DNA from: a virus
Virus record (IMG/VR): IMGVR_UViG_3300035510_000237
Length of the DNA stretch: 43,034 nucleotides
Reading direction: 5' to 3' (one strand)
Position numbers and translations under genes: made by a program. The notes under the pieces are model-generated. The model ran no database searches, was not told the DNA's origin, and was given only the letters and a program-made list of their open reading frames with translations. Shown piece after piece: positions 2,269 to 39,051 of this stretch; position 1 is the first letter of the stretch; the number at the start of each line of letters is the position of its first letter.

Positions 2269-2280
2269 TATAATATAATT

Positions 2281-5200
2281 ATTTTCGATTTGCATATTGA
2301 GAAGCTGCATTTACTAAAGTATTTAAAGCTTCTTGAATTTCATTTTTATCAGTTACATTCGGGAACTCGGCATGAATAGTAACTTCTTGTTCAAGAACTT
2401 GGCTTTCTGTTTGCGGGATTGCTGTCTAGAGCATCGCCTCAAAGCCAGCTGCTGCACTCTAAGCATTTAAATCAATCGTCTAAGAAATAGCTCTAATCAT
2501 TTCAACGGCTGATAATAAATTCTCAGTATCATTAGCGTTAAGAACCAATTCTTTCTAATGAAGGAAAGCAAGTTTACCTTCCGGCCCCCATTCACCTGTA
2601 TAACCGCCTGTAGCCAGGCCAACAGCTGTCATATTAGCATCAGTAAACCAAGAAGTTCCATCATAAAGGAGAGTTTTATCAATGTAATTTTTTTGCTCAT
2701 CTGTTAAAGTTCCTTCTTTATACTTTTTAAACGCAGCAGTTAATCTGTCAGTTGAAACATCCGTAACAGTACCATTTGCCTCTATTTTATCATCTCTGCC
2801 CTACTCTAATTCTTTATATTGCTCATCATCTACTGAGCCACCATTTTTAATATAATTACCCATTGCTACAGAATAATCTTTAATAACTTCCGTGGAAGAT
2901 ATAGAGCCTGCAGAATTTTCTTCTAAAGTAGTATTCTATAATGCGGCATATTGCATCATAGCATTTATTAAATCATATAAAGTATCTCTTTGATCTGCAT
3001 ATGCTTTAGTTACTGTATTAACAGCATTTAATTCATCCCCAAGTTTATCTACAACTATATCAGCCTCTTTAACCAAAGCGTCTGAAGCTGTGGTAGTATC
3101 TTTTACCGCAGTGGTAAGATCCCCATAAGATGTTTTTAAATCACTATTAACTTCCGAAACTCTAGTATTATAATCATTAATAGCTTGTAAACAATCAGAG
3201 GTATATTGAGTAGTATATTGCTCCCAAGTCTATGCTGATGACATCATTCCACTATAAGCTGAGGACCAAGCTTCCTCGACCTAACCAAGATCTTCCTAAG
3301 TAGCTAACTTATATAATTCCTAATACTATTCTAATTTTTCTGTATAATAACTATTACAATCAGCTAATGCTTTTTGATAATCTTCATATGTAGCATATTC
3401 GCCATTTAACCATTTTTCATTTATCGAAGCAAGTTCATCTGTCCAAGACTGCATTGTCTCGGCATATTTTTCAGCATAATCATTTGCGCCATCAAGATAA
3501 AGATTATAAAGGGCATTAGTTTTATCTTCATAATTCTATAAAGCATCGCTTATAGTATCCTAGTCGGCAGTATACACATAACCCCAATTACCTTCACTGT
3601 CTCGACTCATGCGTACCGTGCTCTTAGCATTTTTTGCTTCTTCAAGAGCAATTTCAGCGACTAACTAGTCATATTTTGCCTACTAAATTTTTAATTGATA
3701 TTCGCTTAATTTATTCTAATTTTTTAATTCTTCTGTTTCGGCGATAAACGCATTTAATTTACTTTTAGCGGCTTTATTAGTTGTACTTTCTAAAGCCTAT
3801 GTGGCCGTACGCATTAACTTAGTAGTTTCATAAATCTAATTAGTAGTAGTTAAATATTCTTCCTAAAGAGATTTAGCTCTATCCATCGAAGTAGTTAAAT
3901 CTGCTAAATTATTAATATCTTCTAGCCCAGAAGTAATCATTTCTTCCCAAGCATCTTGAATTTCAGCAAACTGCTAAGTAACAATATCTTTTGCGGCTTG
4001 CGCGGTTTCTTCAAGTTTACTTAAATATTCATCTTCGGCAGTGTTTACCTATTCAGTGATAGCGTCATACTCTTTCTTTAACATTTCCCATCCATATGGG
4101 TCAGCATCCTAATCAAAGGTCGCTAACTATGCTGCTATCGTGACCTACTGGTCTTTGTACATATCATAAGAACTTTTTGCCACCTATAATTCATTTGCAG
4201 TAGTGGTATACTTCCCTTCAAGAATGGCGTTAATAGAATCATAATCTTTTGTCGAACCAAGTAGTCCCTAAAGAGTCTAGAAATGAGAAAGACGAGAAGT
4301 ATAAGCCGCTAACCTATCAGTATATTTACCAATTTCATCAGCAACCGCACTAAGTGAATCACTATAATAATTTAACATTTCTTGGTCAGTTGATAAAATA
4401 TCAGATACCAAACTTGTTACATTGTCAAAGCTCGTTTGAACACTATCATAATAATCTGCTTCAGAAATTTCACCAGCTAAATATGCTTGACGCATTGCTT
4501 CATCACTAACAAGCTAAGTATCATATTTAGATTCATAATCATCTATTTTACTCATGGTAAGAGCTGCTTTTTCGGCTAAACGATATACATTATCTCCTAA
4601 TATATCTATTTTTAATCCTATTAGAGTTAAATCATTATCTATAATCTAAAAATGATTATCTAACCAATAAGTTAGTTTTTCATACATCAAATCCTACATT
4701 TCATAAAGATTGTCGTCAATCTCATCTGTAATATCATTACCTTTATCAACAGAGTCGTTAAGGTTTGAATACCATTTATCTTCAATCGCAAAATAGGCTT
4801 TTAATTCTTCAATTACGCCATTCCAATAGGCTTGGTCATCTGCATTATCGGCTTTGGCTGCCTATAAAGTTGCATAGTCTAAAGCCTCGCCTAAAGCTTC
4901 AGCCCTTTCTCCCTCATTAGTGGCTTCATGAGTTACAGGATCATATACTATATCAGGGATTTTACTTAAAAGGTCCTACATTGTCGAGGTCTGCGTTTCA
5001 CTAGCTATGCCATCCTTTTTAATAGCTGCAGCAATCTCAGCATATCCTTCTGTTGCAGTAGCTTCATTTTTCTATGCTTTAGCAAGATATTCGAGGGTTT
5101 TGCCCTAATTAATATTATACTCTTCCTATAATTCCACACTTTTTTCTGCTAATTTTTCGTATTCTTCATTTATTTTATCTATTTTGTTCTAACCATAAGC

Positions 5201-8200
5201 ACGTTCTATCTATTTTTCTAATTTACTAATTGCTCTATCTAAAGAATTTAAGGTACGAGTAAAATCTTGGTATTCGTCACTAATAATATCACTTATATCA
5301 AAATCTTCAATTCTTTCTAAATACCCAATCGCATCAGCAATCTAATCATCAATATCAGAAATTAAATCTAAAGTATCGTTGTACTAATCATAATATTCCT
5401 ACCAATAAGATAGCCAATCTTCAGCTTCATCATATCCAACTTCTTCTTTGTAAGCATCTTGCTCTTCCTAAGTGGATAGCCCATTTAAATACTCATCCCA
5501 AGCATCAAATTTGGGCTAAATTGCAGCTGCTATATCATCATAAGTAGTAGTTAAATGACCATCATCATCATATTCTAATGTAAATGTAGTGCCAAAATAA
5601 TTGCCTAGTTCTTGAGTCGCTTTTTCTAAGTTAGCCTAGTCTTGTGGTAAATATGTTTCTTCTGCTAATTTCTTTTCTTGCTCTAGCAAAGATACATATT
5701 CTTTATTTTTTTTACAAATTTCAGCTAGGGCGCCTAATCTATCCGCGCCATAAAGGTTATCAGCCGCTTTATTAGCTTTCTCTAACGCTTTACTTACATC
5801 ACTAATTGAATTTTCTATTGTTTCATAACGATTAAAGCGCTACGTTTTAGCTGTCCTTTTAGCAGGAGAAGAAGAACCACTGCCACCAGAAGAACCTCCT
5901 GAGCTAGAACCTCCTCCGCCGCCTGAAGCTTTAGCGGTTGCACCAGAGCCAGAACCATTATATGAGGTTCCACTTGGACTAACAACTGGTAATGTAATAT
6001 CGCCAGCGCCAGTACCATTAGCAGTTGTTGTCTACTAAAATTCTGCATTAATCTCCTGTGCTGCATTACCAGTACCTATTGTTCCAGTCATCGTCCAAGA
6101 AGAATTAGATGTCGCTCCCGCATTTTCGGTAGATGAAAGGGTTTCTTGTTCGACATTTAACTAACCTTCAATTTGGTCTAATGCCATCTAATAAGCAGTA
6201 TTATAATCATAACCAGCATCTACTAATTCCTAAGTGACTTCATCAATCATGCTATTAACGGCATTATGTAGATTTGAAAAATCAGCACCACAACCTAGCT
6301 AACTAAGAATTTCATCCATCCCATCAACACCGTTAGCTAATAAGTCGCTCCAAGTTAATCCAGCATTTGTTAATACTGTACTAACATTATCCATTTCCTA
6401 AAGAGTACTATCATCTAACCCTGAAATTACATCAGCCCATTTAATAGTAATATAATCAAAATCTACATTAAATCCAATTGAATTTAATAAGGCTTCAACT
6501 TCATCAGTGGTCATCTAACCAGTAGCTAGCATTTCATTCAATGCTGCTAAAAATTCTGTATCGTCTAGTGTAGCGCCAACTTCTAAGTTATCTAAATCTA
6601 AATTATCAATAGCTTTCTCTAATTTAGTAAGTGCTTTATCATCAAGTTTTAAACTAACTAAATAATCTTTTGCAACTTCTTTCTAAAGGGCTTTTAGAGA
6701 GGCAATGTCTCCGTCACTAGCTTTCTAAATTAAATCTAAATTTTTAGCAACAGTATTATTAGAAACTTTTACTCCAAAGATTTTAGATAAAGCAGTACCA
6801 ACTGAAGATAAAGATTTTGCCGTATCAACAGATATATCACTTAAATTGCCAGAAGCTTTTTTAACTTTTGCTAGTTCGTCACTATAATCATCTAATGCGT
6901 CAGCTAAATCATCAAATCCCTCTTGTGCAGACATAGCTGAAGCTGCCATCTATAAAGCTAAAGTCTACATCTACTCAGTGCTTCTTGCGGCATCTCCTAA
7001 AGCACTATTATAAGCTTCTAATACCCCATATAAAACATCAGCATAGTTTGACAACTCAGTAGCGTCTAAGCCAGTGTCAGAAGCAGTAGCAGCCAAAGCT
7101 GCTTGATAGGCTTCATCCCAAGCCTCTGCAAGTTTTTTTACAGCTTCAGTTTCTTCGTTAATACCTTCAATCTAAGATATAGCGTCAAAAGCATCATCTA
7201 AATCCATTAAGTCATTTATATCTTCAACAGAAGCTGATAATACCTAAACTCCTGCAACCATAGCATCTACATTATCAATTAATCCTGAGTCTATCCAAGA
7301 AGCTAATTCAGTACCATCCATTGCGGAAGTAGCTAATGCAATTTCAGCAGCCAACTATTCTGCAGCGTTTGCAGTTTCATCAAAATAAGCAGCATTTTCT
7401 GCCATTATTTCATCTAATCTTTGAACTGCTGCATACTATTCTGAATAACTGGCATTAACATCATTAATTATATCCTAAAGGTCTTGTAGCTCCCCAATTG
7501 ATAAATCAATTCCCTAATTATTTGAAGCAAGATCTGTTAAAGCATCAATTTGAGAATTAGCTTTTCCTCGTCCAATATATGAATTTCCATATCCCTATTC
7601 TATAAAAGAAGAAGAAGTATCTACATCAGATCGAACCTCCGCCGCCCGCAAAGACTAAATTTCATTAATGAAAGGCTAAATAGTAATTTCATGAGCTGCT
7701 TTCTAAAATTCTTCCGCATCGCCAGTAAGCATAGCTGTGCCATCAGCTAGTACAGTAAAAAATTTATCAGTTAATTCTGTACCTAAATCTGACTATAAAG
7801 TAGTATAATCTTCAGAACTTACAGTATCACCTTTAGATAATCCACTTATAATTTTTTGAACAGCTGCATAAATTTCAGATGCCGTAGCTGTAGATACTGC
7901 TCCAAGCTACTGCATTGTATTAATAATTTTCTATAAATCAGAATCTGATTCAGTAACAACTATTCCAGTTTCTTCTAACTTTGCTTTAAATTCATCTACT
8001 GTTATGTCTGAAAAATCTAATTCTCCTAATACCGTTGCAAATTCTCCAGCATCATCTCCAAGATTTTTAAACATATCACTGACACCCTGCATGGCGGTTT
8101 TGCCATATTTATCGTAAGCAGTTTGTAATAAATCTCCGACAATACTAGCTTGGTCAAGATTTAAGTCTTTGCCTGCATCAGAGTCCATTAATGAAGTATA

Positions 8201-11200
8201 AACTTTATTAACACTATCGGATAAATTATTTCCTATGGCATCAAAGCTGGCTTGTAATAACTGATTTGCCACATCTACATTTATTTTAAAATTATCTAAT
8301 GTATTAAAACCAAAAGTCTGAGCTTCTTCATTTGTGGTTAAAGTATTTACATAATTCTAAATATTATTTACATCTTTTGAACTTAAATTAGAAAAATTTG
8401 AACCTCCAGATAGCCCCAATAGCGCTGAAGTAGCCTCTGCGCCAAGTCCCTCTTTATTAATTAAATTTTCCTATAACTACTGCGCTTCTAATGTAGCCTA
8501 AGCTAGCTGCTCGGCTGTTTCAATAGCACCTTCGCCTAAATCCCCTAAATAAACATTTAAATCTTCTGCGGTTATACCTAATTCATCAACAAGTTTATCA
8601 AAACCAAAAGTAGATACTGCCCCTTCAGCAGAATTTATATCCGCAGCAGCTTCATACTTTTTAATTCGCTTATCATAATCTCCATAGTCTTCTAAATAAT
8701 CTACTAAAGCCCGCTGATAATTTTCTGCAGTAAATTCTGGAGTAGTTGTCTAAGCCAAAGACTATCTAGCAACTAAATTTTGAATTTCCGCAGAAGCATT
8801 ATTATAATCTGAACTATTTAATCCAAGCAAATTATTCTAAGCTAGCTAAGTTTTTATTAAATCATTGCTTTCTTCTCGTCCATCAATATTTGCCACTAAA
8901 GTACTAATATCTGTTAATGAAGCACTAATATTGTCTAACTCATCTGTAGATAATACTCCAATTACATCTGTAAAACCAGAATTAATAATGTCCCATTTAG
9001 CATTCTCATCATCACTAGTTCTTAAAGTCTCAATCGCCTATGTAAAATTCTCTATACCATTTTCTGAAATATAAGAAACAATATTGCTTAACTAGTCTTT
9101 ATCAATACCAATACTTTTTGCTGTCTCTTTAATGTCAACAGCATTCTAGTCTTGATTATTTGAAATAGTATCAGCATATTCTTGCGATAAAGCATCTCGG
9201 CTTTCTTGTAAAACTTTATTAATATAATTCTAATAAGTCTCACTGGTAGTATCTAAGCCAAGTACGCCATTTACATTGGTAACCGCAGCAGCTAATTCAG
9301 GATAAGTTTGAATTAATTCAAGAACTTTTTGATTTAATTCTTCAACCGCTTCTCGCCATTCATCAGTGCCTTCAGTCATTTCATCTAAAGCTGAACGAGC
9401 ATCCGCTATATCATCAAGAGAAGACTGTAAATCATCATAAGCCTATTGAGCCTCTTCTGCTTTTTCGGTAGATTCTTCCAATTTTTTGGTAGAAGCCTCA
9501 AGAGCATCTTCTTCTTTATTCTAAGCTTGAATCCAATTATAAATAGCACTACCTACAATTGCAATAGCTGCAGCCACCGCTAAAATAACAAGAGCTGCAC
9601 TGCCCATTGAAGCAGATAAAGCTTCATTTGCCATTACTTCTGCCCAAATAGCTCCTGTGACCGTTGTATGCTCTTCTGCCTCAACAGCCTTCTCAGCGGC
9701 CACTTTAACAGAATTAGCAATTTCTTCTCCCTATGTAATTGTTAATATTTTAAGAATTAGATTTTCTGCATTAATAGATTTTGTTAAAAGGTTATATGCT
9801 GCCGTTAAAGTTGGTATTGTCATACCAATAGCCATCATGACTGAAGAAACCGTTTCCCATTTTGAAGCATCAGGATCTTGAATTTTCTCCCAAGCTGTTT
9901 TCCAAGTGCTCATTAGCATGCTAACTGACATAATAGTCGAACCTAGAGACTAAATAACTTGGCCCCAATTAACAACTTTCCCCTGCATATTACTAATAGT
10001 CTTACCAGCTTTATTAGTACTCTGCTCCAAATTCTTCTACTAAATATTAAATTGTGCAGTCTTTTTTCCCGCTGTTTCAGCAGCAGCACCTACTTTATCT
10101 ATAATTTCAGCTTCTTTAGAGCCTGCCTAAACGTTTACATTTAGCATACTAGAAGTGGTAGCTGTATTTGCTCCAGAGCCAAAATGAGTCATTAATCCAC
10201 TCATGGTATTATCTACGCCTTTTAAACCGGTTTCAATATTTTCCAAATCTAATTTAGCAGGTTCAAACATTCCGTCGCTATCAACCTCAATAGTAGACAT
10301 CTATTCTTTTAACTAAGTAAATGCATTTACAAGACCTTGCGCCTTCTCTCTCTCTTCTGGTTCAATTAATTCAGAATTAGCAATTTCTTGATACTTCTAA
10401 ATAGCCTAATCTAAGCTTTCAGTAAAAACATTAGCATTTACTTTACCAGTACTGTCTAAAGCTTTTTTAAGTGCATCAACTTGTTCACGACCTTCGCCAA
10501 CTGTTTTAGCAAGATTAGTGAATTGAGCCATGTCTATTTTAGTAGTTTTAAGCTCTGATATTTTATCTATAAGTCCTTGAACTTCATTCTAAAGCTTTAA
10601 AATATCAGAACCAGTAGTTTTAGAAGCAATACCTTCCTTTTCGGCCGCCTACACTTCTTCATAAGCAGCTTTTACTTTTACCAGTGTGCCAACTGCATCT
10701 ATTCCTTTTTCATTAAGTTCCGTTAGAGTGGCATCATCCAATTCTCCTACTACAGTATCTAAAGGCGTATATAAATTATTTAATAATGTTTGTTTTCTAC
10801 TTTCATTCTATAAATTAGCAGAAGTCTTATCTGTCGCAGCTACAGTCAAATCCTACATAGCTGACGCCGAAATTCCTCCAGATACAGCTGTTACAGAGGA
10901 TAAAGCCCTCCTAGCCTCAACAGTTCTAGCTATAGCTTCAGCTTCTTCATTGGCTTTATCAACTACCTATCCCTATGCAATAAGCTAATCACCCATAAGA
11001 GCATTAATATTAATTAATTCCTATGCGTGCTTTACCTAAGCTTCACTTAAATTACTTTCGTTAATAAGAAGCTTTTGCTATATCGAGGCAATATTCTAAT
11101 AATTTGATACGGTTGCCTAGCTCTCAGCCGATGTTGATGTTGCGGTCATCTATTGTAGCTATGTAGAAGCTTCTTGCTTCATAGAAGTCGCTTGTTTAGC

Positions 11201-13175
11201 CGCCTGACCTGTTATAATGCTAATATTAGATTTTATTCTTTCAAATCCCGCAGTAATTGAGTTGCCAAATAACGCCAAAAAAGCAGGAACCACTACTTTA
11301 GTAACTACTCCGCCTAAACCGCCTAATTTATCAATTAACGTATCAATTACTTCAATAAAACCTTCAATACCATCTAAAGCAGAAATAAAAGCATCATCAT
11401 CAATTAACTTAGAATAAATACTTTCTAAAGCTGCTTGCACTCTATCACTAGCAGCCTCCCAGCTTTCAGCATAAATATCCTATTGCTCCTAAAGGGTGCC
11501 CTCAGAAGTAGCAGCTGTCTCCAAATTCTGCTACATAGCGTCCCAGTTATCCATTAAAGCAACAAACTGAGTATACTGTCTTGTACCAGCAACGGTTTCA
11601 GCCAGCGCCATCTAAGTATCCTTGCTTAAAGTAGACCATTTAGCTGCGGTTTCGTCAAGGATAGTATCCATATCCTTTAAATCGCCAGAAGCATCTTTAA
11701 TATTTACTCCGACTTTCTCCAAAGCCTGAGAATAAGTACCTAAAGAAGTACCATCATCAAGAGTTTCTCCTAACTCTAGGTCTTGGATTCTCGCAAAAAC
11801 TGTTTTTAAAGCTGTACCTACTACATCGGCAGACTGACGAGTCTATGCTGTAATAGTAGCTAAAGCAGAGGCCGCATAATCATAGCTTAAACCTACGGTA
11901 TCACCTACAGCTGCGAACTTCTCAACGCCTTCTGCGATTTCTGCCGCACTAGATGCAGTCGTAGCACCTAACTTAGTAAGTACATCCGCATAACGCTCTA
12001 AGTTATCAGAACCATCTGAGAAGTTATTCCAAATAGCTGTCATATACTCGGAAACAGTATCCGCAGATTCGCCCATGACATTAGCTAGCTTTACGGTCGT
12101 TTCAACACGCTCGGCAACCTCTTCGTCATTTAACCTTTATATTCCATATAGCTCGCTACTTCTATATGCGTTCTCTTATGAACTGCTACAACTTTTCAAT
12201 TGTAGAGTAGACTATATCTCACCTAATATGAATGGTATTATCATTTTGTCCATCCTAGGTATTCCCTTTTCGATTCGCTTGAATCTACTCCTCTTTGACC
12301 GAGGATAGTCGTTGAACCTTTCTCTTATCGAGACTTGGCTGCGGATTGCCCAATCTTTTACCTTTTTACTATACCCATGATGATTAATCATAGCCATCAA
12401 ATTCTCTCTTTGATTTAGTAGTAAAAGCTCTAAGGGCTTGCCCGCAATTAAAGAATTTTTAGGGCAATAAATCTTTTATATTTATACGCTTGCCTTTGAT
12501 AATTATAAATTTACTACCATCAGCTCGTGTTTTAATTAATTCCGACTAAAGAAGATTTTAATTTTCCCTATTGATAATAAATCAGCGACGCGTTCGTATA
12601 ATCTGTCGTTGTGGTGCTTAAAGCTTTAGCTGCTTTATTCGCATTCTCTGCGAAGACCGCCATCTAGTCGCTAGTCTGCCCAGTAACAATTCTAATATTG
12701 TTTAATGATTCATTTAAATCTTCCGCATAATTAACAGCGGTTGAAATTCCACTCATTAAGCCATGAATAATACTAGATGATAACTACCATTTAGCTGCAT
12801 TCATTAAAGTGACTTTCAAGTCAGACATTAATGTGCTAGTCTATCTTAATGGAACCTCAGCATTCTAAATAGATGTCGCCAAAGAAGCAAATGCTTTCTA
12901 CCCACTAGTGCCGCAAGCCTCTAAAGTCTTACGATAAGATTCAAGACTTGTGCCACTCTATTTCAAAGAAGTATTAAACTTCGTTAAATCTAATTTACCA
13001 GAAGGAAGTGTAGCTTGCGCCAGCTATGTCTTTAATTGCGCGGCGGCCGCACTAGCTTCCTATATCTCTTTGGTTAAAATATTCTGGCCGCTACTTACGC
13101 TTGAGCCACTCGCAAGCTCAGTTAGCTATTTCTGTAAATCCTATAACTACGCCTTGGCCTAGGCAGTATCCGCGG
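2281..13175 (-). CDS. Tail tape measure protein, one giant TAG-recoded ORF. join(12541..13175, 2281..12134) with a group I intron at 12135..12540; about 3,480 aa after splicing.
   Basis: ATG at 13173-13175 follows an AAAGGAG RBS. The N-terminus has a TMP core, ...AAKALSTTTTDYTNASLIYYQQG | (K)LNDEEVAERVETTVKLANVMGESADTVSEYMTAIWNNF..LTKLGATTASSAAEIAEGVEKFAAVGDTVGLSYDYAASALATI... The C-terminus ...EIQEALNTLVNAASQYANRK* (TAA at ~2281) is typical of Firmicutes siphovirus TMPs. All ATG ORFs of at least 60 aa on the track between 4277 and 12076 share one frame and all terminate at TAG. I read 2281-5880 and 11159-12134 continuously with only TAG interruptions. There is a GGS-rich low-complexity stretch at ~5840-5960. 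Confidence 0.6.
12135..12540 (-). other. Group I self-splicing intron in the TMP gene, ORF-less.
   Basis: Minus-strand reading finds the core elements. P-like AATTGCGGGCAAG is the revcomp of ~12421-12433. Q is AATCCGCAGC exact, revcomp of ~12335-12344. R is GTTCAACGACTA exact, revcomp of ~12299-12310. S-like AGATATAGTCT is the revcomp of ~12200-12210. Splice sites were chosen so the 5' exon ends in U, the intron ends in G, and the frame is restored (..IYYQQGK|MLNDEEV..). The intron carries TAA/TGA stops in all frames. Confidence 0.7.
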
Positions 13176-13257
13176 TAAACGCTAGATTTACAGTAATCTA
13201 TTGTGCCATATATTTACTCCTTTCTCTCTCGGTTTTTCTATTTGCAAATAAAAAAAT

Positions 13258-13295
13258 AAAGGGTATTAGAGCTAAATAACTCTAATACCCTTAAC
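13258..13295. terminator. Bidirectional stem-loop between the chaperone-like gene and the TMP gene.
   Basis: AGGGTATTAGAG-ctaaataa-CTCTAATACCCT 12-bp stem flanked by A/T runs. Confidence 0.4.
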
Positions 13296-16424: not shown

Positions 16425-17221
16425 TTAATTTTCCTCCTTAAAAACAAATTTCTATTTTTTTCTCTATAAAAATAACTCAGGGTTATTTTTATACATAAAT
16501 TTGCCTATTCTTATAGTATCTTTTTTACCAAATCGAATAGACATAGAGGAAGGGTCATAACTTCCGCCTTCAACGCCCGCTTTATCTTTTAAAATAGCCC
16601 ATAAAGTATTTAAAAAATCTTTACTGCCACTAGTAAATGCGCTGTTTAAACGATTGTTTTTTAACCGCATAATGCACCCGTCGCCATCAAAATATCCACG
16701 AATAAAATCTGCTAAATACTCTTCTGGAATCTCTGGGAACTTAGCTGTTAAGCTTTTTCTCTCTGACCCTCCTAGAGAAATTATATCATTATATATAACT
16801 ACACAGCTAAAATTAAGCCTAGCCGCCTATCTATCAACGTAATCATAAAGGCTACCTTCATAGTTTAGTTCTTCAGCTATACGCTTTAAAATATATTTAT
16901 CTTTAGCGTGTAATGTTATATCAAACATTTTACCCCCATAGATACATCCATCAGCAAACCATAGCCCTAAAATGTAAGCCATATTATTTGACCATGTTTT
17001 AAAATAATCCTAATTGATATGCCATTTTCTAGCATTCTAAGATTGTACTTTACTTTTTTCTTCCTATGAGAGTTTTTTAATAGCTTTATGCTAATGATAG
17101 CAATAACTATATATCTAGTCCTTCGTATAGACCTTATTAAAGTATTCATACCATTCGGGCAAGGTTTTACTCTCACTCTAAGTTAAGAGAATCTCCTTAT
17201 GTTCCGGTAATATCGGCAAAA
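16425..17221 (-). CDS. Free-standing LAGLIDADG homing endonuclease with two motifs, TAG-recoded, immediately upstream of the intron-containing major tail protein gene.
   Basis: Motif 1 is MAYILGLWFADGCIYGG and motif 2, about 95 aa later, is ADFIRGYFDGDGCIM. The frame contains track ORF 16464..16670. The start is uncertain. It is either the ATG at 16982 with a weak RBS, or the upstream TTG at ~17221 after AAAAGGAAG, read through 6 TAGs. It ends at the TAA at 16425-16427 if TAG is sense, or at the TAG at 16464 if not. Confidence 0.6.
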
Positions 17222-17242
17222 TATTACACTTCCTTTTCAATT

Positions 17243-17974
17243 TTATTGATGAAGATTTTTCATCCAATCATCTGGTTTGGAATCTGGCTTGCCTCCCGCC
17301 AAACGAGAACGAATATCCAAATCCCAGTTTATATAAAGCGAATATCTTTCAATTAAATCATATAGCTAATATATAGTACAATTTAATAAATCCTATAATG
17401 ACATTGACTCTAAACCAATAGTCAATATTGAAACATATCGGCTTAATATACTTGAATTATTGTCTCCCTTCTGCGCAGCGACCCTCTAGCGTCCGCGCAT
17501 CAGCTTATCCGCAATTTCTTTAGCTTTTGAATTACCAGGATTAAATGACTACTAATCCATTGGCCCATTCTTAGAGCAACAAACTAATCTAATAGCGTCC
17601 TAAAGGCTATCAAAATTATTTTCATCAACAGTAATCATTTCATCTTCATTCTAAAAGATTAAAGACCTTGGAGCAAATAAAACATTATTTTTTGGAAAGA
17701 ATAAGCTCAAAACCTGCTAGACGCAAATTTTCTTATCCGCAGTTTGACGCTCATTCATCACTGTCATAAATATCTAAAAATTGGTTATATTCTCTAAATT
17801 ATCTTTGCCCTACTAAATAAACATTGATTTATGTAAGGTTAAAGTCTAAACTCCAATGAAAAAATCTTCTTCTCCTAAATAAGATATTTCTTTAATAGAA
17901 GGCTAATGAAGAACTAATCTACAAGGAGGTATTGGAATATCTGTGCCTGCCATTAAAGCTAGTCTGGTATCCAT
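17243..17974 (-). CDS. Hypothetical neck/tail protein, ~243 aa, TAG-recoded.
   Basis: Its ATG overlaps the upstream stop (ATAATGG). It reads MDTRLALMAGTDIPIPPCRLVLH(Q)PSIKEISYLGEEDFFIGV(Q)TLTLHKSMFI(Q)(Q)GKDNLENITNF(Q)IFMTVMNERQTADKKICV(Q)QVLSLFFPKNNVLFAPRSLIF(Q)NEDEMITVDENNFDSL(Q)DAIRLVCCSKNGPMD(Q)(Q)SFNPGNSKAKEIADKLMRGR(Q)RVAAQKGDNNSSILSRYVSILTIGLESMSL(Q)DLLNCTIY(Q)LYDLIERYSLYINWDLDIRSRLAGGKPDSKPDDWMKNLHQ* with TAA at 17243-17245. Confidence 0.4.
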
Positions 17975-32892: not shown

Positions 32893-33303
32893 ATGACACT
32901 TTCGGGTGATGGAGCTTTAAGATTAAGTTTACTGTTGGAATGGGATGAATATACCAAAGAGCATGGATTAAAGAATCCTTATAAAAAGCGCAACAATGTT
33001 TTAATAGCTAATTCAGATAAAATGCGTGTAACCAGCACAGGTGTTATTTATGAAAATGATGTAGAGGCGCAACTTCCTCCAAAAGAAGAATGTGAAAATT
33101 GGAATAAAATGGAGTATGAATTTGTTGCGCGAGGCTTCCTAAAGGAAGCAGGATATGATGGCTTTCTGCGGCAAGTAGAATTTGCGCGAGGAGCTATTGA
33201 TTATTTGATTGATGAAATTTGTCCATGCGAAGCTGATGATGGTCAGTGTCATATGGATTGTCGATATTATGAAGGAGGGTGTACTAATGACTTTAGTACC
33301 TGA
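32893..33303 (+). CDS. Hypothetical Cys-rich early protein, ~136 aa.
   Basis: Track ORF 32878..33303, with the likely start at the ATG at 32893 (MTLSGDGALRLS..). The C-terminus CPCEADDGQCHMDCRYYEGGC is a possible metal-binding cluster. Confidence 0.45.
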   Translation: MTLSGDGALRLSLLLEWDEYTKEHGLKNPYKKRNNVLIANSDKMRVTSTGVIYENDVEAQLPPKEECENWNKMEYEFVARGFLKEAGYDGFLRQVEFARGAIDYLIDEICPCEADDGQCHMDCRYYEGGCTNDFST

Positions 33304-33538
33304 GAATACTACTAGACGAGTGGATGGGCTTGGCCGCATTACGCTGCCACGAGGCCTGCGGCAAAGATTTGCTATTGATGATAAAACTGAAATGGAAATT
33401 TATACTATGAATTATAATGGTAGAAATTATATTTGCCTTGGCGAAGCTAATGAAGTTGATGATAAGTATATCACTGCTAAAAATGTATTAGAAGAGCTTG
33501 GTGTGGAAGTTCCGCCTGAGCTTTTAGAAAAATTCTAA
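33287..33538 (+). CDS. AbrB/MazE (SpoVT_AbrB swapped-hairpin) family DNA-binding protein, 83 aa.
   Basis: GAAGGAGGGTGTACTA-ATG. It reads MTLVPENTTRRVDGLGRITLPRGLRQRFAIDDKTEMEIYTMNYNGRNYICLGEANEV.. The core R-VD-LGRI-LP---R--F-I---D-E-EIY matches the AbrB N-domain consensus. The track ORF 33209..33538 is the same frame starting upstream. Confidence 0.6.
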   Translation: MTLVPENTTRRVDGLGRITLPRGLRQRFAIDDKTEMEIYTMNYNGRNYICLGEANEVDDKYITAKNVLEELGVEVPPELLEKF

Positions 33539-33849
33539 ATTGGAAGGGAAGGTTTACACCTTCTCTTCTTTTTATTTTATTAAAGGTACTTAATTCTTAT
33601 TTTCCCAGAAATAAATAAATCGTGATGCCGAATTTAAAAGAGGTTTTGGAGGGAGTATAGCTCAGAGCAAACCCGATTCAAAAAACGAAAAAATTATTCT
33701 CCCGAAATACCCCCGCCCCCTACATCAATCAGAAAAAATTTTTTCGTTTCAGTCTCAGAAAAATATATAAAAGGTATTGCCGGGTCGCCAGAAAAGCAAC
33801 GCATCGAGCGTCTTGCCACCGCGGAGGTTTCACAGGCGCGCTAACGACC

Positions 33850-34330
33850 AAAAGCGCCGTAGTTTCAGCGCTTTAAAGTGTTGAAGTATTTTTTATCTAA
33901 TTGCTTCACCGCACTAAAGCATTGAAGCATCCCATAATGCACTTTAACACAGTAAAGCATTAACAATTTAAAGTCTTTCTCTCATGGACACCTGTGAGTT
34001 AGTTAGAACTAACTATGGTTAGCCCTAACTAACCCCCGGGCACTTTAACACAGTAAAGCGCTAATACACCGCCGCATTAACGCATTAATACTTTAGTGTG
34101 GCAGAGCGCACTTTAGCACAGTAAACAGCTAATGTTTTAAAGTTCTCCTGGAGCGGACACTTTAACACATTACAGTGCTACCTCGCTGACTCGGCAGAGC
34201 GCACTTTAACGATGTAAAGGGGCGATGTATTGAAGCAAAGAATTTTTAAATTATCTATTCGGCGCACTTCACTGCCCTAAAGCGCTAAAGCAAGGGGCGC
34301 CCTAGCAATCTGCACAAAGACAGGGCCGCA
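33850..34330. repeat. Non-coding iteron-like cluster with one core palindrome.
   Basis: A 19-20 bp unit (G)CACTTTAACACAGTAAAGC occurs about 5 times (~33938, 34040, 34108, 34158, 34200). There are also GCTTTAAAGTG/CTAAAGC dyads, GGCAGAGCGCACTTTA twice, and the palindrome GAGTTAGTTAGAACTAACTATGGTTAGCCCTAACTAAC at 33996-34033. No ORF lies on either strand. Confidence 0.6.
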
Positions 34331-34346
34331 TCTTTGTCTAATCTGC

Positions 34347-34381
34347 GAGCTTGACTAAACGCTGTTTAGCTGCTATAATAG
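34347..34381 (+). promoter_or_regulatory. Early promoter TTGACT-17-TATAAT.
   Basis: cttgactaaacgctgtttagctgctataatagagc lies upstream of the RBS (AAAGGAGAG) and ATG at 34413. Confidence 0.5.
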
Positions 34382-34412
34382 AGCTACAAAGAACAAAGGA
34401 GAGATACACACT

Positions 34413-34613
34413 ATGACACACTACACTATCACTTGCCCATACACTAACACTACCATTAAGAGAACCATTAGTGAATACGAGGCTATTGCTACAATGAGAC
34501 AGTTCACAACATACACCTTTGGAGAAATCTACCAGCTTAGTAAAAAGAACAATCCCCTGACTCTTTCCAGTAGCATGGGCATTATGTACACAATGACCAA
34601 AGAGATTGATTAA
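34413..34613 (+). CDS. Hypothetical early protein, 66 aa.
   Basis: Track ORF with a good RBS and a TAA stop. Confidence 0.5.
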   Translation: MTHYTITCPYTNTTIKRTISEYEAIATMRQFTTYTFGEIYQLSKKNNPLTLSSSMGIMYTMTKEID

Positions 34614-34694
34614 CATTTGTGCAGAACGCCACTTGAAAAGCGAATAAAGATAGAGTATAATAAAGGCACAGAAACGATGAAGGAGATATAAACT

Positions 34695-34877
34695 ATGAAG
34701 ATGTATGCGAAAACAAACAGCAAATGGATGGGCGTTTATCATTCCTCTCCTAATGAGTGGACAGAGGTCAAGTATGAAACTGAAAAGTATTTCCCCTCTG
34801 GTAGACGTGAGGTTCTGGTATTCGCAAACGGCGCAATGGAAAAGGCTGACAGATGCGATGTCTGCTATGTGTTTTAA
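34695..34877 (+). CDS. Hypothetical early protein, 60 aa.
   Basis: Track ORF with GAAGGAGATATAAACT-ATG and a TAA stop. Confidence 0.5.
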   Translation: MKMYAKTNSKWMGVYHSSPNEWTEVKYETEKYFPSGRREVLVFANGAMEKADRCDVCYVF

Positions 34878-34895
34878 TAGAAAGGGGTACAAACG

Positions 34896-35012
34896 ATGAA
34901 AAAGGTTATCATAGGTTTGGCTATCTTGCTTGCGGGTTTGATTGGTGCGGCGCTTGCAACACACAACGCAAAAAGCTATGTTTATAATGTAGCATACTAT
35001 GACGGTGTGTAA
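34896..35012 (+). CDS. Small secreted/membrane peptide, 38 aa.
   Basis: AAAGGGGTACAAACG-ATG. It reads MKKVIIGLAILLAGLIGAALATHNAKSYVYNVAYYDGV*, a lipoprotein-like signal, and ends in TAA. Confidence 0.4.
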   Translation: MKKVIIGLAILLAGLIGAALATHNAKSYVYNVAYYDGV

Positions 35013-35231
35013 GCACGTTAGTTGATGAAGACGGCGAAACGTTCATTGGTGACTATGACCTTGCAGAGGGTACATACTATGTGTGTTATGATAGCAATAA
35101 GACAGTAACAAGACTGGATGATGTACCTGTTAGATTTGAAAAGCTGGACTAATTGAAGTCCCTTTTAATAAGAAGAAGTAGTATCTGGTATAGTAATAGA
35201 ATGGGAATGAAAAACGGCATTCCCATTCTAT

Positions 35232-35340
35232 TATTTAAAATGAGTTAGTTAGAACTAACCATGGTTAATTGAAACTAACCCAGTAGCGCGAGTTAGTTAG
35301 AACTACCTACTGTTAGTTACCGCTAACGGCCTAGACTTCA
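35232..35340. repeat. Palindrome cluster (TTAGTTAGAACTAAC family) plus the conserved CCGCTAACGGCCTAGACTTCA box.
   Basis: gagttagttagaactaaccatggttaattgaaactaacc ... gagttagttagaactacctactgttagttaccgctaacggcctagacttca. Confidence 0.55.
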
Positions 35341-35434
35341 CCACGCTAAAGCGTTACAACAAAAAATCGCTAATTCGATGATGCTTTAAAGCACTAAAGT
35401 ATTTCCCGAAATGCTGCTTTAAAGTATTGAAGTG

Positions 35435-35570
35435 CGAGTTAGTTAGAACTAACTATGATTAGTTCTAACTAACTAGGGACTATGGGTTAGTTAGAACTAA
35501 CTATGATTAGTTCTAACTAACTAGGGACTATGGGTTAGTTAGAACTAACTATGATTAGTTCTAACTAACC
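35435..35570. repeat. Tandem array, three units of ~43 bp, of the perfect palindrome AGTTAGTTAG-AA-CTAACTAACT paired with its mirror TTAGTTCTAACTAACTAGGGACTATGGG.
   Basis: gggttagttagaactaactatgattagttctaactaactagggactat is repeated 3 times head to tail. Each unit contains two oppositely oriented 10-nt arms. Confidence 0.65.
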
Positions 35571-35715
35571 AAGGCGGACAGCAACACTTTAAAGCACTAA
35601 AGAGTTTGCGTGGACGTTTAATCAAAGACTTTAATAGATTAAAGTATTAAAGAAAAGTTTGCGCTGACATTCAAACAAACTTTTAAAAAGTTTTTGATTT
35701 TTATACAAAAACCCC

Positions 35716-35744
35716 TTGACAAATGAATGAAAAGGGCTTATAAT
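35716..35744 (+). promoter_or_regulatory. Early promoter TTGACA-17-TATAAT.
   Basis: ttgacaaatgaatgaaaagggcttataat lies upstream of the RBS and ATG at 35779. Confidence 0.55.
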
Positions 35745-35778
35745 GGTCACAGAATTTAACGAAAGGGGCTAATACATT

Positions 35779-35967
35779 ATGAAGTATAGCTATTATGAAA
35801 ATCTTATTGACAACGCTGAGACTGTTGAGGAAGCCGACCACATTATTACTTGCATTGAATGCGACATGAATATCACCGATGAAGATTTTGAAAAATCTAT
35901 TGTCTATGCACAGGAAGTTATGGACGAATTGGAAAGAGCACATAAATGGGAAAGAGATTTCATGTAA
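35779..35967 (+). CDS. Hypothetical acidic early protein, 62 aa.
   Basis: Track ORF with RBS GAAAGGGGC and a TAA stop. Confidence 0.5.
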   Translation: MKYSYYENLIDNAETVEEADHIITCIECDMNITDEDFEKSIVYAQEVMDELERAHKWERDFM

Positions 35968-36020
35968 TACAATTTGAAAAGAAAGGGCTACTTTTTAAAG
36001 GTAGCCCCTTTTTTACCCTA

Positions 36021-36340
36021 TGAGTTAGTTTCAACAAACTATAGTTAGTTCTAACTAACCTATAGGGCCAGTTAGTTAGAACTAACTACTGTTAGGCTCC
36101 GCTAACGACCTAGACTTCAATGCTTTAAAGTGCTAAAGTAAAATTTTGCGATTTTGGCGTCGCTTTAAAGTGCTAAAGCGATTCCCGAAATTCAACACTT
36201 TAAAGTGCTAAAGAGTTTGTGCGAGCGCTCACGCAAAGACTTCAGCAAGCTAAAGTGCTAAAGAGTTTGATTAAACGTCAATGGACTTTTAAACGAGAAT
36301 TTTAGCACGTTAAAGTATTAAAGTGCTGCTGATGGAAAGA
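36021..36340. repeat. Third copy of the composite non-coding repeat: palindromes + CCGCTAACGACCTAGACTTCA + CTTTAAAGTGCTAAAG iterons + TCCCGAAAT.
   Basis: gagttagtttcaacaaactatagttagttctaactaacc..ccagttagttagaactaactactgttaggctccgctaacgacctagacttcaa, then gctttaaagtgctaaag 3 times, gattcccgaaatt and ctaaagtgctaaagag twice. Confidence 0.6.
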
Positions 36341-36577
36341 AATGGGGTGTTACCCCCATTTCTTAAAGCTGGATTTCTCCCAGGCTCATATTTTTGATTT
36401 CTTTCATTATTTGACTTTTTAATGGTCAGAATGTGAACTAGGGAAAATACAAATTGACACCTTGTTTTCAGCACATTTTGGAGGAAAAACACATTCTGAC
36501 ACTATAAATTCCCTTGATTTTGTTGTAAGATATAGACGTTCCAAGGGAACGCAAACAAAATAAAGGGGTTTGATACT

Positions 36578-36742
36578 ATGGCATACAGAAATTATAAAAA
36601 AGCAATCAATGGTTGTTTCAACTACAATGAGGCTTTAGAGGTTTTCACCCAGGCTATGAATGATTCTAGGGTATCCAGCAAGCACTTGGAAAAGTTAAAT
36701 GCGCTGTGCTGGAATCGTTTCGTCCTTCGGGTAGCTTGTTAA
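36578..36742 (+). CDS. Hypothetical early protein, 54 aa.
   Basis: AAAGGGGTTTGATACT-ATG. It reads MAYRNYKKAINGCFNYNEALEVFTQAMNDSRVSSKHLEKLNALCWNRFVLRVAC* and ends in TAA. Confidence 0.4.
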   Translation: MAYRNYKKAINGCFNYNEALEVFTQAMNDSRVSSKHLEKLNALCWNRFVLRVAC

Positions 36743-36777
36743 AAGCTACCCACGAAAAAGAAAGAGAGGTTATACAA

Positions 36778-36948
36778 ATGACTATGCAAGAATTTTTCTC
36801 CGCTTGGAACGACTTTTTCCAGAACGAACTTGACAACTACAACACTATCCAGGCCGGCATTGATTTTTTTGTGAATGAACATGCTACCAGTTACGAGGAA
36901 TGGAATGCTATGCATGAACTGCTAGAAGATTCTTTCTCAGACCTTTAA
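36778..36948 (+). CDS. Hypothetical acidic early protein, 56 aa.
   Basis: AAAGAGAGGTTATACAA-ATG. Same frame as track ORF 36706..36948. TAA stop. Confidence 0.45.
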   Translation: MTMQEFFSAWNDFFQNELDNYNTIQAGIDFFVNEHATSYEEWNAMHELLEDSFSDL

Positions 36949-37053
36949 AAAAAAATAAGGTTTTTTTTCAAAAAAGAGTTGACTTCTAGGCCATTATCTG
37001 CTATACTATCAACGTGGGAACACACTATATAAATTTTTTTGGAGGCATGTAAA

Positions 37054-37182
37054 ATGTATACTAGCTTTGATTATGAAATTCAGTCTGACGAATTCGCAAT
37101 GGAATACGAGGAATGGCTAGCCCTTCAGGAGGAGCTTTACAATCCTGATTTTGAGGACATGGAAAAGAGCCTGAATAGCTGA
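37054..37182 (+). CDS. Hypothetical acidic early peptide, 42 aa.
   Basis: Promoter gagttgacttctaggccattatctgctatact then GGAGGCATGTAAA-ATG. It reads MYTSFDYEIQSDEFAMEYEEWLALQEELYNPDFEDMEKSLNS* with a TGA stop, followed by the hairpin terminator CCCCTGGGtgaaaatCCCAGGGG at ~37194-37217. Confidence 0.4.
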   Translation: MYTSFDYEIQSDEFAMEYEEWLALQEELYNPDFEDMEKSLNS

Positions 37183-37234
37183 CACAAAGAAAAATCCCCT
37201 GGGTGAAAATCCCAGGGGACAAAATGAAAAAAGT

Positions 37235-37270
37235 TCTTGACAAAACAGCATTTATAGCTTATACTATAAG
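37235..37270 (+). promoter_or_regulatory. Early promoter TTGACA-18-TATACT.
   Basis: ttcttgacaaaacagcatttatagcttatactataag. Confidence 0.5.
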
Positions 37271-37327
37271 AGAAGTCGGAACCCACCAAAAAATGACCGC
37301 CTTAAAGGCAGAGAGGAAACGATAATT

Positions 37328-37663
37328 ATGAAAGCAACTGAGATTAAAACCACATTCACCACCGATTGGACTTGCGACTATCTGGAAAGCCAGATGAATG
37401 AACGTTACAAGTTAATTGGTACTTCAAGAATAGACCGCATAACCCATGAATGCTTTTTCCATGGAATAGACGGCGATAAAGATATGGTCGAACCTGAATT
37501 CAGCTGGGATGTTCTGGAAAAGAAATTCATGGCAGTGGTAAATGAGGCTACTGAAATTATGAAAGCCCAATTTGCTGAGGCTTTCCAGGCGGAAAAAGAA
37601 AGAAAAATTGATACCTGGAAATGGGTAGCAGAGGAAAAAGCTGAAATGGCAGAAAACGAATAA
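37328..37663 (+). CDS. Hypothetical early protein, 111 aa.
   Basis: Track ORF with RBS GAGAGGAAACGATAATT-ATG and a TAA stop. Followed by the terminator hairpin TTTCCCGGTTC..GAACCGGGAAA at ~37673-37710. Confidence 0.55.
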   Translation: MKATEIKTTFTTDWTCDYLESQMNERYKLIGTSRIDRITHECFFHGIDGDKDMVEPEFSWDVLEKKFMAVVNEATEIMKAQFAEAFQAEKERKIDTWKWVAEEKAEMAENE

Positions 37664-37729
37664 ACAAAAAAACTTTCCCGGTTCTTGGAAACAGGAACCG
37701 GGAAAGATACAAAATATATAAGATTAGTA

Positions 37730-38060
37730 TGTTTTAATAGACTAAAGTATCAAAGTATACTGCGGCGGTATGTTTTAATACTTTAGCAAACTAAAACCTG
37801 GTGTAGAGGTATGTTTTTGCGATTTACTGTGATAAAGCATAGCAAGAAAGTATGTTTTGGTACTTTAAATTGATAAAGCGTCTCTCAGGGAAGGATACTT
37901 CAACGCTTTAAAGCACGGCCGCGCGTTGGCGGAGGGCGCAGCCCGTTCTGCCGCTTTAAAGTGCTAAAGCAAAAAATTCTGCTATATGCTTCATCGAGCT
38001 AAAGCGGTGAAGCACTCCCGAAAGCCACGCATCGTGCTCATAGCGGAATGAACAAACTTT
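37730..38060. repeat. Fourth iteron-like cluster of the (C)TTTAAAG / (G)CTAAAG family.
   Basis: ctaaagtatcaaagtatac, ttttaatactttagcaaactaaaac, ctttaaattgataaagcg, cgctttaaagcacggcc, ccgctttaaagtgctaaagc, gagctaaagcggtgaagcactcccgaaag. Confidence 0.5.
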
Positions 38061-38082
38061 CTAGCTCATCTTTGTGCATTAT

Positions 38083-38115
38083 GCCGGCTTGACAAAGCTC
38101 TAGCCGCATGATACA
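38083..38115 (+). promoter_or_regulatory. Early promoter TTGACA-17-TACAAT.
   Basis: cttgacaaagctctagccgcatgatacaat lies upstream of the RBS and ATG at 38148. Confidence 0.5.
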
Positions 38116-38147
38116 ATAGAGCCACACCATAGGAAAGGATTGATATT

Positions 38148-38404: not shown

Positions 38405-38445
38405 TGAGTTAGTTAGAACTAACTATAATTGGTTCTAACTAACCA
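38405..38445. repeat. Palindrome pair of the TTAGTTAGAACTAACTA family.
   Basis: gagttagttagaactaactataattggttctaactaacc. Confidence 0.55.
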
Positions 38446-38541
38446 AAAAAATATTTTTTTTTATTTTTTTTATTTACCCCCTTGACAAATCAATAAAAAA
38501 GTAGTATATTATAGATACAAAGTTTAAAGGAGCTGTTACCT

Positions 38542-38875: not shown

Positions 38876-38965
38876 GAGTTAGTTAGAACTAACCATGGTT
38901 TACTCTAACTAACTAGAGGGAGCTATGGGTTAGTTAGAACTAACTATGATTAGACTAAACTAATT
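38876..38965. repeat. Palindrome cluster of the TTAGTTAGAACTAAC family.
   Basis: gagttagttagaactaaccatggtttactctaactaactagagggagctatgggttagttagaactaactatgattagactaaactaa. Confidence 0.55.
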
Positions 38966-39051
38966 GCGGCGCGCAATAAAAAAAATTAAAAAAAAACTAT
39001 TGACAAATTAAAATTTTATGATATAATATAAACATAAGATAAAGAAAGGAA

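Follow-up and report, generated by a model that had tools for sequence, protein, structure and literature searches.

Arrays of HisR-type operator boxes in the early region of a TAG-recoded gut phage and their possible action as a repressor sink

The virus record IMGVR_UViG_3300035510_000237 of IMG/VR, a stretch of 43,034 nucleotides that was analysed at its full length (hereafter, the window), comes from the genome of a tailed phage and has four clusters of short palindromic repeats, at positions 33850-38060, in the non-coding gaps between early operons. These repeats very probably are HisR-type boxes, that is, sites matching the operator of HisR (also known as YerC), a member of the TrpR family that acts as a histidine-dependent repressor in Firmicutes (PMC9413887). 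Binding of HisR to the boxes in vivo is predicted as probable, with lower confidence than the identity of the boxes. The combined proposal, namely that the phage carries in its early gaps 22-28 operators of a host HisR which most likely act by titration of the repressor, is close to an even call and is put forward here tentatively on the basis of the sequence comparisons described below. HisR sites as such are already known; the large phage arrays and the placement of such sites in phage terminal repeats appear not to have been described before, and, within the searchable library, the literature yielded neither a link between HisR and phages nor a mention of the repeat sequence.

The HisR operator consensus in Firmicutes is cacTTTAnnnnnnTAAAgtg; the HisR of Ruminococcus gnavus binds one such site in vitro, only in the presence of L-histidine, and three HisR sites are predicted in the R. 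gnavus genome (PMC9413887). Most Eubacteriales have HisR, and for Oscillibacter and Faecalibacterium two loci are given (PMC9413887). The extended phage dyad, (c)aCTTTA-N6-TAAAGtg, is the same as this published consensus, and no other 8-mer is as strongly enriched in the phage modules as GCACTTTA (55 occurrences against 2 in the background). A palindromised weight matrix was derived from 90 published Eubacteriales HisR sites, which are predicted sites with one experimentally validated among them, and was used with cut-offs of 13.0 bits (25th percentile of the training scores) and 16.6 bits (training median). The scan of the window with this matrix yielded 22 matches of at least 13.0 bits, all located within 33902-38006 and none in the rest of the window, compared with an expectation of 0.07 matches from dinucleotide-preserving shuffles of the same region; 11 of the matches reach the training median. 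Throughout, the boxes keep the exact 5-6-5 geometry and the flanking CAC/GTG. Other known motifs that were considered, namely the T3/T7 promoter core CACTAAAG and the CIRCE, cre, CodY, PurBox, Noc and Spo0A boxes, did not fit the spacing or symmetry of the repeats.

A connection between the motif and the repressor family comes from a metagenome scan for the perfect palindrome CTTTAGCACTTTAAAGTGCTAAAG, which retrieved bacterial contigs with a 186-aa gene flanked on both sides by CTTTAGCACTTTAAAGTGCTAAAG. The encoded protein is assigned to the family Trp_repressor (PF01371, E = 8.5e-15 and 2.1e-14), aligns to a solved TrpR-like protein of Eubacterium eligens (3G1C) and has relatives annotated as YerC/YecD in Woesebacteria and Microgenomates. 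In the loci L150/L152 and L155/L157, which are Woesebacteria/Microgenomates-like and thus from the candidate phyla radiation (CPR), double boxes with an 8-bp offset, about 630 bp apart, flank the YerC/YecD-type gene. The presence of double boxes on both sides of the gene implies autoregulation, tandem binding and a DNA specificity conserved from CPR bacteria to Firmicutes.

The window contains 33 matches to the dyad CTTTA-N6-TAAAG when one mismatch is allowed, and 28 of the matches fall within 33871-37989, whereas 4.05 +/- 1.6 are expected for the whole window from mononucleotide shuffles. The four repeat clusters noticed in an initial sequence-only reading are therefore real, and a repeat search recovered the repeat families independently. 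The clusters occupy four non-coding gaps (33540-34412, 35150-35778, 35968-36577 and 37664-38147) that separate short early operons, the boxes lying after the terminator of one operon and before the promoter of the next. Cluster 1 (33869-34284) comprises 20-bp palindromic boxes starting at 33869, 33902, 33940, 34041, 34089, 34109, 34158, 34202 and 34265, with matrix scores of 11.1-22.8 bits; the best of these, CACTTTAACACAGTAAAGCG at 34041, scores 22.8 bits against a training maximum of 23.8. Cluster 2 (35334-35646) has boxes at 35334, 35382, 35415, 35585 and 35627 (11.8-15.6 bits). Cluster 3 (36113-36325; 9.6-19.1 bits), with boxes starting at 36113, 36121, 36161, 36196, 36238, 36298 and 36306, holds two overlapping pairs offset by 8 bp, and cluster 4 (37730-38006; 10.4-17.1 bits) has boxes starting at 37730, 37779, 37820, 37861, 37896, 37952 and 37987. 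In its fuller form, the unit consists of TRAAG pentamers in an 8-bp register, either as CTTYA-N6-TAAAG-N3-TRAAG or as the 24-bp palindrome CTTTAnnnCTTTAAAGnnnTAAAG.

The two repeat spellings that the sequence-only reading had quoted as separate iteron-like elements turned out to be variants of this single 20-bp palindromic site. Its proposal of a fixed composite module, in which a palindrome, a companion box, a run of repeats and a final box follow each other in constant order, holds for part of the region: the complete arrangement is common to modules 2 and 3 (35284-35412 versus 36063-36191, 129 nt, 75% identity). It does not extend to the other two clusters, as the CCGCTAACGRCCTAGACTTCA box is present only at 35320-35340 and 36099-36119, cluster 4 lacks the palindrome, and in cluster 1 the palindrome (33997-34033) lies inside the cluster, with the TCCCGAAAT box (33700-33708) upstream of it. 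The module copies in the window are 60-85% identical to the reference copy, that is, they have diverged.

The same motif is widespread in other genomes, so the repeats are not recent duplications lacking conservation elsewhere. The exact 17-mer GCTTTAAAGTGCTAAAG was found in 45 IMG/VR stretches, and two perfect dyads 12-42 nt apart occur in at least 120; among the matches listed, many of these paired-dyad stretches carry 5-34 matrix matches and several have them at the ends of 13-kb contigs. One class of carriers consists of large phages with many-dyad clusters, among which L053, L020 and L028 (the loci collected for comparison are given L numbers) belong to the family of the window phage; in related large phages the number goes up to 35 boxes in 9 kb (L015), and L142 has 26 boxes within 3.5 kb. 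Exact tandem arrays with periods of 23, 41, 42 or 49 bp are present in L189, L243, L200, L181 and L214 of IMG/VR, one example packing 18 boxes into about 600 bp; such arrays give the impression of having grown through repeat expansion. The second class comprises contigs of about 12-16 kb (L019/L004, L029, L031, L008, L177, L211 and L217 in IMG/VR) with inverted terminal repeats of about 180 bp or longer that start with AAAGT. These are phi29-like podoviruses, which encode a protein-primed-type DNA polymerase B, a gp16 ATPase, a phi29-type capsid protein and a connector. Each of their terminal repeats holds 2-4 boxes, scoring up to 24.4 bits (the terminal-repeat site of L031), and in one lineage the first box, at nt 17-36 of both ends, is invariant while the flanking sequence varies. 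Another phi29-like lineage has a run of 6-7 GTGCTAAA octads. Pfam searches with the early proteins of the phi29-like phages were uninformative, except for a GerE-type helix-turn-helix in one lineage.

In bacterial genomes, a 24-mer scan produced matches in metagenome-assembled genomes (MAGs) of Clostridia, some of which are binned phage contigs; the motif-bearing contigs are binned with MAGs of Oscillospiraceae, Acutalibacteraceae and Christensenellales. Six contigs of one Clostridia MAG, Horse_feces285 (JAKSSQ01; L141, L145-L149), are chromosomal and carry the genes for RuvABC, TruA, IspE and a Ser/Thr kinase; their repeats contain 3-7 boxes per contig by the matrix, are intergenic and are flanked by GC-rich inverted repeats. 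The repeats have the arrangement GGGGACGGGTAC-[2-3 HisR-type boxes]-GTACCCGTCCCC beside ruvABC, truA and ispE, and are a REP-like (repetitive extragenic palindrome-like) element family embedding putative metabolic-repressor operators. A similar ACCCCCGCCCCC box occurs in the window at 33710-33721. A different situation is seen at L144, from an Oscillospiraceae MAG, where a double box (1248-1275) overlaps a promoter-like TTGACT-17-TAAAGT sequence; a sodium:solute symporter gene (PF00474) follows, its first plausible start lying about 330 nt further downstream. This double box is a probable host HisR operator, and the symporter may be a HisR-controlled histidine transporter with an additional leader element; the GC-rich leader between box and symporter gave no Rfam match. 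Furthermore, three phage contigs that each carry a single HisR-type box contain arrays of a different repeat (TTTTACAG, with a spacing of about 20 nt; L043 5990-6050, L007 2430-2510 and L037 1120-1200), so that these phages may commonly carry other operator-like motifs as intergenic arrays.

Several properties of the boxes fit a dimeric protein bound to double-stranded DNA. In 21 related loci, the spacing in CTTYA-Nx-TRAAG is N6 in 163 cases, and any other spacing between 3 and 9 nt is seen at most 9 times. Among the variants of the N6 arms there are 19 C/A and 13 T/G single changes and not one compensatory C/G double change, and the orientation of the boxes relative to transcription is nearly symmetric (71 versus 53). 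A distance of exactly 8 bp is the most frequent one between adjacent boxes (31 cases); the other neighbour spacings, 28-48 bp, show no periodicity, and there is no helical phasing beyond the 8-bp offset. Escherichia coli TrpR binds its operators in tandem, and the 8-bp-offset double boxes suggest, by analogy, that HisR might do the same. As the boxes lie upstream of promoters and downstream of terminators and are absent from the transcribed stretches, they should be largely untranscribed. Taken together, the strict spacing, the lack of compensatory arm changes and the avoidance of core promoters point to protein sites on double-stranded DNA rather than RNA hairpins. The sequence-only reading had raised the possibility of small RNA genes because promoters and terminators flank the modules, and every dyad can indeed fold into a hairpin with a 5-bp stem and a 6-nt loop, in RNA or in single-stranded DNA. 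This explanation is now extremely improbable: the 32 single changes all create mismatches and none is compensated, no strand bias is observed, a promoter scan found no strong promoter inside the modules, none of the modules matches Rfam, and the sites lie outside the transcribed stretches. The absence of compensatory changes and of strand bias likewise argues against a hairpin in either RNA or DNA.

The protein that binds the boxes is probably encoded by the host. The boxes are present in phi29-like phages that share no protein with the window phage; apart from the CPR bacterial contigs, no HisR/YerC-like open reading frame (ORF) was detected in 3.09 Mb of collected loci, and a scan of IMG/VR with the hallmark peptide of the family revealed no phage-encoded HisR homologue; and no protein family is specific to the array-bearing loci, the mildly enriched DEDD exonuclease and HAD hydrolase being no DNA-binding regulators. 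Given these observations, a host-encoded HisR is the most economical candidate. The suggestion of the sequence-only reading that the repeats are binding-site arrays is thus supported, with the qualification that the sites match a host metabolic repressor and not an early regulator of the phage. The alternative that a phage-encoded protein of the same or convergent specificity binds the boxes, in early shut-off or autoregulation, is improbable; it draws on a family-wide conserved AbrB/MazE-like early gene (33287-33538, plus strand) immediately 5' of cluster 1, and on the portion of each related phage genome that was examined, about 10-20 kb, so that a regulator could be encoded elsewhere. The product of this gene matches Pfam PF04014 with E = 1.2e-4, below the curated cut-off, and a home-made profile with E = 3.5e-23; a search for close relatives through this protein found none. 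The gene occupies the same relative position in more than 50 related phages, with or without HisR boxes, it is present in 52 loci with fewer than three dyads and it is absent from the box-bearing phi29-like phages, which led us to reject its product as the binder. Moreover, no protein family tracks with the arrays, no TrpR/HisR-like ORF was seen in the phage loci or IMG/VR, and the boxes also occur in bacterial chromosomes.

The boxes match the HisR motif but are not found in the usual location of the HisR regulon: no his genes are present in the window and no promoter is overlapped. Of 199 site-promoter pairs in 19 array-bearing loci, not one has its box in the interval from -70 to +20 relative to a consensus promoter; the boxes are concentrated at -80 to -240, in a broad distribution, and are nearly absent downstream. 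Since they never overlap the core promoter, unlike genuine HisR operators including the probable one of L144, the phage boxes do not appear to be classical repressing operators. With the genuine operators of Firmicutes (Ashniev et al. 2022, PMC9413887) the 20-bp palindrome cacTTTA-N6-TAAAgtg is shared, the matrix scores in the window equal those of the best genuine operators, and YerC-family genes are flanked by the same sequence, but genuine operators number about 1-4 per genome, precede his, transporter or hisR genes and overlap the promoter, whereas the phage has 22-28 boxes in arrays, away from core promoters and with no his gene nearby. The pattern fits a decoy: the 22-28 boxes of the window compare with about 3 per host genome, core promoters are avoided, and the top score of 22.8 bits, with the matrix score taken as a proxy of affinity, exceeds the training median of 16.6 and approaches the maximum of 23.8. 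A box number far above that of the host regulon, high matrix scores and free positioning favour titration, although that titration is the purpose of the arrays is a possibility which we hold with considerable reservation. Under this scenario, host HisR loaded with histidine would bind the arrays upon entry of the DNA, and replication of the phage would multiply the sites beyond the approximately 1-4 HisR sites of the host. The arrays would then pull HisR off the promoters of the host his operon and histidine transporters, and the resulting derepression would raise histidine synthesis and uptake without any metabolic gene of the phage. Placement in the early region or at the genome ends would let the sink act from the moment of entry. 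The generalisation that gut Firmicutes phages reprogram the amino-acid metabolism of the host through HisR-operator DNA sponges, as a strategy common to unrelated lineages, among them the phi29-like phages with boxes in their terminal repeats, is rather doubtful.

Several points weigh against the view that the arrays are a sink for host HisR. The identity of the boxes is a sequence match; the host is placed only loosely in Clostridia, through the motif-bearing MAG contigs mentioned above (Oscillospiraceae, Acutalibacteraceae, Christensenellales); and the view of about 10-20 kb per related genome leaves room for a phage-encoded binder elsewhere. A sink requires continued host transcription, which the approximately 20 consensus early promoters of the phage may not allow, and the benefit of extra histidine is a conjecture. 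Most relatives that share the late gene next to the early region (65-75% identity) have no boxes in the adjacent 10 kb, so the arrays appear to be dispensable for the phage family, being gained and lost. The first box of the phi29-like terminal repeats, invariant at nt 17-36, looks more like a site with a cis role at the origin than like part of a sink. Finally, a HisR sink does not account for several other elements of the region, namely GTTAGT-N4-ACTAAC palindromes, the TTTGTGCA element and the CCGCTAACG and TCCCGAAAT boxes.

The main rival, which we consider unlikely, is histidine-sensing control in cis, whereby HisR·histidine bound to the arrays would modulate early transcription of the phage, as a roadblock, an insulator or part of the upstream architecture, and, in phi29-like phages, protein-primed replication at the termini, so that phage development would be tuned to amino-acid sufficiency. 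HisR, which binds DNA only with histidine, is a ready-made nutrient sensor; the boxes are always found after a terminator and ahead of the following early promoter, with a concentration at -80 to -240; and the phi29-like phages keep the first box unchanged at both ends amid variable flanks. What speaks against such control is that the boxes keep neither a constant distance from the promoters nor a helical phase with them, with aperiodic neighbour spacings of 28-48 bp, that simple repression is unlikely for boxes that never overlap a core promoter, and that dozens of sites exceed the regulatory need and related phages do without them. The sequence-only reading had proposed iterons of a replication origin, for which the clustering of non-coding repeats near a switch of transcription direction, where the GC skew flips at about 32 kb, and the presence of the same boxes beside the protein-primed origins of small phages can be cited. 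However, the repeats are palindromic operators of a known repressor family with near-symmetric orientation, not direct repeats for an initiator, the four clusters are dispersed with no associated initiator gene, and the skew flip is explained by divergent gene orientation. Close relatives lack the repeats, most having no sites near the homologous position, and the only link to replication, the boxes in the phi29-like terminal repeats, is indirect; accordingly, an origin of the large phage is quite improbable. A related idea, that the large phage carries decoys of the origins of small phages, was superseded by the HisR match. An equally low probability is assigned to a selfish or structural repeat, either an element resembling miniature inverted-repeat transposable elements (MITE) or REP, or a recombination linker between early-gene cassettes, in which the resemblance to HisR sites would be incidental or secondary. 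The boxes in the Clostridia MAG chromosome do lie inside intergenic repeats with GC-rich inverted repeats, the early region is hypervariable and some arrays in other phages are exact tandem repeats. Against this, the diverged copies in the window (60-85% identity) have kept the 5-6-5 geometry and the CAC/GTG flanks, two phi29-like lineages have the box unchanged in their terminal repeats, and no terminal inverted repeats or target duplications were seen around the phage modules.

Among better-known systems, E. coli TrpR operators involve the same protein family (PF01371) and the same 8-bp register of half-sites (PMC9413887). They differ from the boxes in the half-site (GNACT/CTAG instead of CTTTA/TAAAG), in the co-repressor (tryptophan instead of histidine) and in occupancy, as TrpR operators hold 1-3 dimers and not dozens. 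With titration loci, such as E. coli datA for DnaA, the P1 incA iterons for RepA and synthetic DNA sponges (PMC7686491), the arrays share clustered sites of high (here, predicted) affinity, a (here, proposed) lowering of the free DNA-binding protein and the unimportance of position relative to genes. The datA and incA loci, however, titrate the initiator of their own replicon, whereas the phage would titrate a metabolic repressor of its host. Host-factor sites are also known beside protein-primed origins, namely the NFI and Oct-1 sites of adenovirus, and phi29 has p6 and Spo0A sites near its genome ends. Similarly, the phi29-like phages have their dyad about 17-36 nt away from each terminus, just inside what is presumed to be the core origin; here, in contrast, the protein would be an amino-acid repressor, and the boxes of the window phage are internal. 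The stoperators of cluster A mycobacteriophages are many copies of a short repressor site spread across intergenic phage DNA, as are the sites described here, but stoperators are asymmetric, oriented with transcription, bound by the immunity repressor of the phage and distributed genome-wide, whereas the sites in the window are palindromic, clustered and match a host factor.

The GTTAGT-N4-ACTAAC palindromes represent a second operator-like family, distinct from the HisR-type boxes. Inverted-repeat and repeat-family searches delineated a 37-bp palindrome with two such units at 33997-34033, and the repeat search placed further palindromes at the start of module 2 (35243-35279), at the start of module 3 (36023-36059) and, beyond the range covered by the sequence-only reading, at 38407-38443, just upstream of a promoter at 38482; two more are located at 38877-38962, upstream of a promoter at 39000. 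These palindromes are placed after terminators or just before promoters, and the only related match for the family in IMG/VR is the relative L053. The family is also triplicated once: between the boxes of cluster 2, three exact tandem units of 48 bp, each with a GTTAGTTAGAACTAAC / GTTAGTTCTAACTAAC palindrome, occupy 35438-35569 (period 48, 2.8 copies, 100% matches in Tandem Repeats Finder). The 129-nt repeat includes the companion box CCGCTAACGGCCTAGACTTCA at 35320-35340 (plus strand), whose last bases are the left arm of the first HisR-type box, and its counterpart CCGCTAACGACCTAGACTTCA at 36099-36119 (plus strand); a related box, CCGCTGACGGCCCAAACTTCA, was found in L053. The TCCCGAAAT box at 35404-35412 (plus strand) has other copies at 33700-33708 and 36183-36191 and a variant, TCCCGAAAG, at 38016-38024; its linkage to arrays in other loci is not consistent. 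A sigma-D-type promoter reading (TAAA-N15-CCGAAAT) was rejected: the spacing fits two modules, but the box is not associated with arrays elsewhere.

The early promoters next to the arrays have an additional feature. At 34329-34379 (plus strand), the upstream element CATCTTTGTCTAATCTGCGAGC, of the TTTGTGCA family, precedes the promoter TTGACT-17-TATAAT (11/12 matches in the promoter scan); by repeat finding, this segment shares a repeat family with 38067-38101, where, within 38067-38117 (plus strand), promoter scan and repeat finding identified the upstream element CATCTTTGTGCATTATGCCGGC, of the same family, with the promoter TTGACA-17-TACAAT. A perfect consensus promoter (12/12 matches) is located 3' of cluster 2 at 35716-35744 (plus strand), and 70 bp separate its -35 hexamer from the end of the nearest box upstream. 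The TTTGTGCA / TGCACAAA element lies directly 5' of the -35 hexamer in a subset of early promoters (34329-34350, 38067-38088) and is also found at L059 3446 and 8081, L053 10549, 11246 and 13843, and L019 63-95. It is present in array-free relatives and strongly conserved in phi29-like terminal repeats, and may be a third protein site common to unrelated phages.

As to the genome that carries the arrays, the window contains terminase, portal, capsid and tape-measure genes. ORFs of at least 150 aa number 6 in the standard code and 28 when TAG is read as sense; the long TAG-read-through ORFs are all on the minus strand within 1-32236 and correspond to the late genes, and the early plus-strand genes use the standard code. 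ARAGORN found no tRNA, and hence no suppressor tRNA, in the window. The tape-measure gene, of more than 3,200 aa, is interrupted by a group I intron at 12187-12510 on the minus strand (Rfam RF00028, 61.6 bits), the two parts of the gene being 12532-13290 and 2279-12136; away from the intron, the ORF at 16425-17267 has LAGLIDADG-like features by reading of its translation. From 32.2 kb onwards, the window contains many very small plus-strand genes, intrinsic terminators and about 20 sigma-70-type promoters, 12 of which are perfect TTGACA-16/17-TATAAT, and the region has the appearance of an early region for host takeover. Divergent gene orientation explains the flip of the GC skew near 32 kb. 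The late protein adjoining the early region has 243 relatives in IMG/VR with 65-75% identity, on contigs of roughly 100-200 kb; among these relatives the early region shows no conservation at the DNA level and is hypervariable, and searches of isolated-phage DNA with the region and with an array returned no match.

If HisR binds the arrays, these phages would exploit an amino-acid repressor of the host through non-coding DNA alone, in an interaction invisible to gene-based annotation, including surveys of auxiliary metabolic genes. This would be a natural case of a virus titrating a transcription factor or, in the alternative reading, of a lytic phage sensing nutrients. The boxes could also serve as a sequence handle for host prediction, since the expected host of such a phage has a HisR of this specificity. 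Such binding would explain why the early regions of TAG-recoded gut phages of 100-200 kb, a big family, contain large non-coding stretches that are otherwise puzzling, and why small phi29-like phages have conserved boxes in their terminal repeats.

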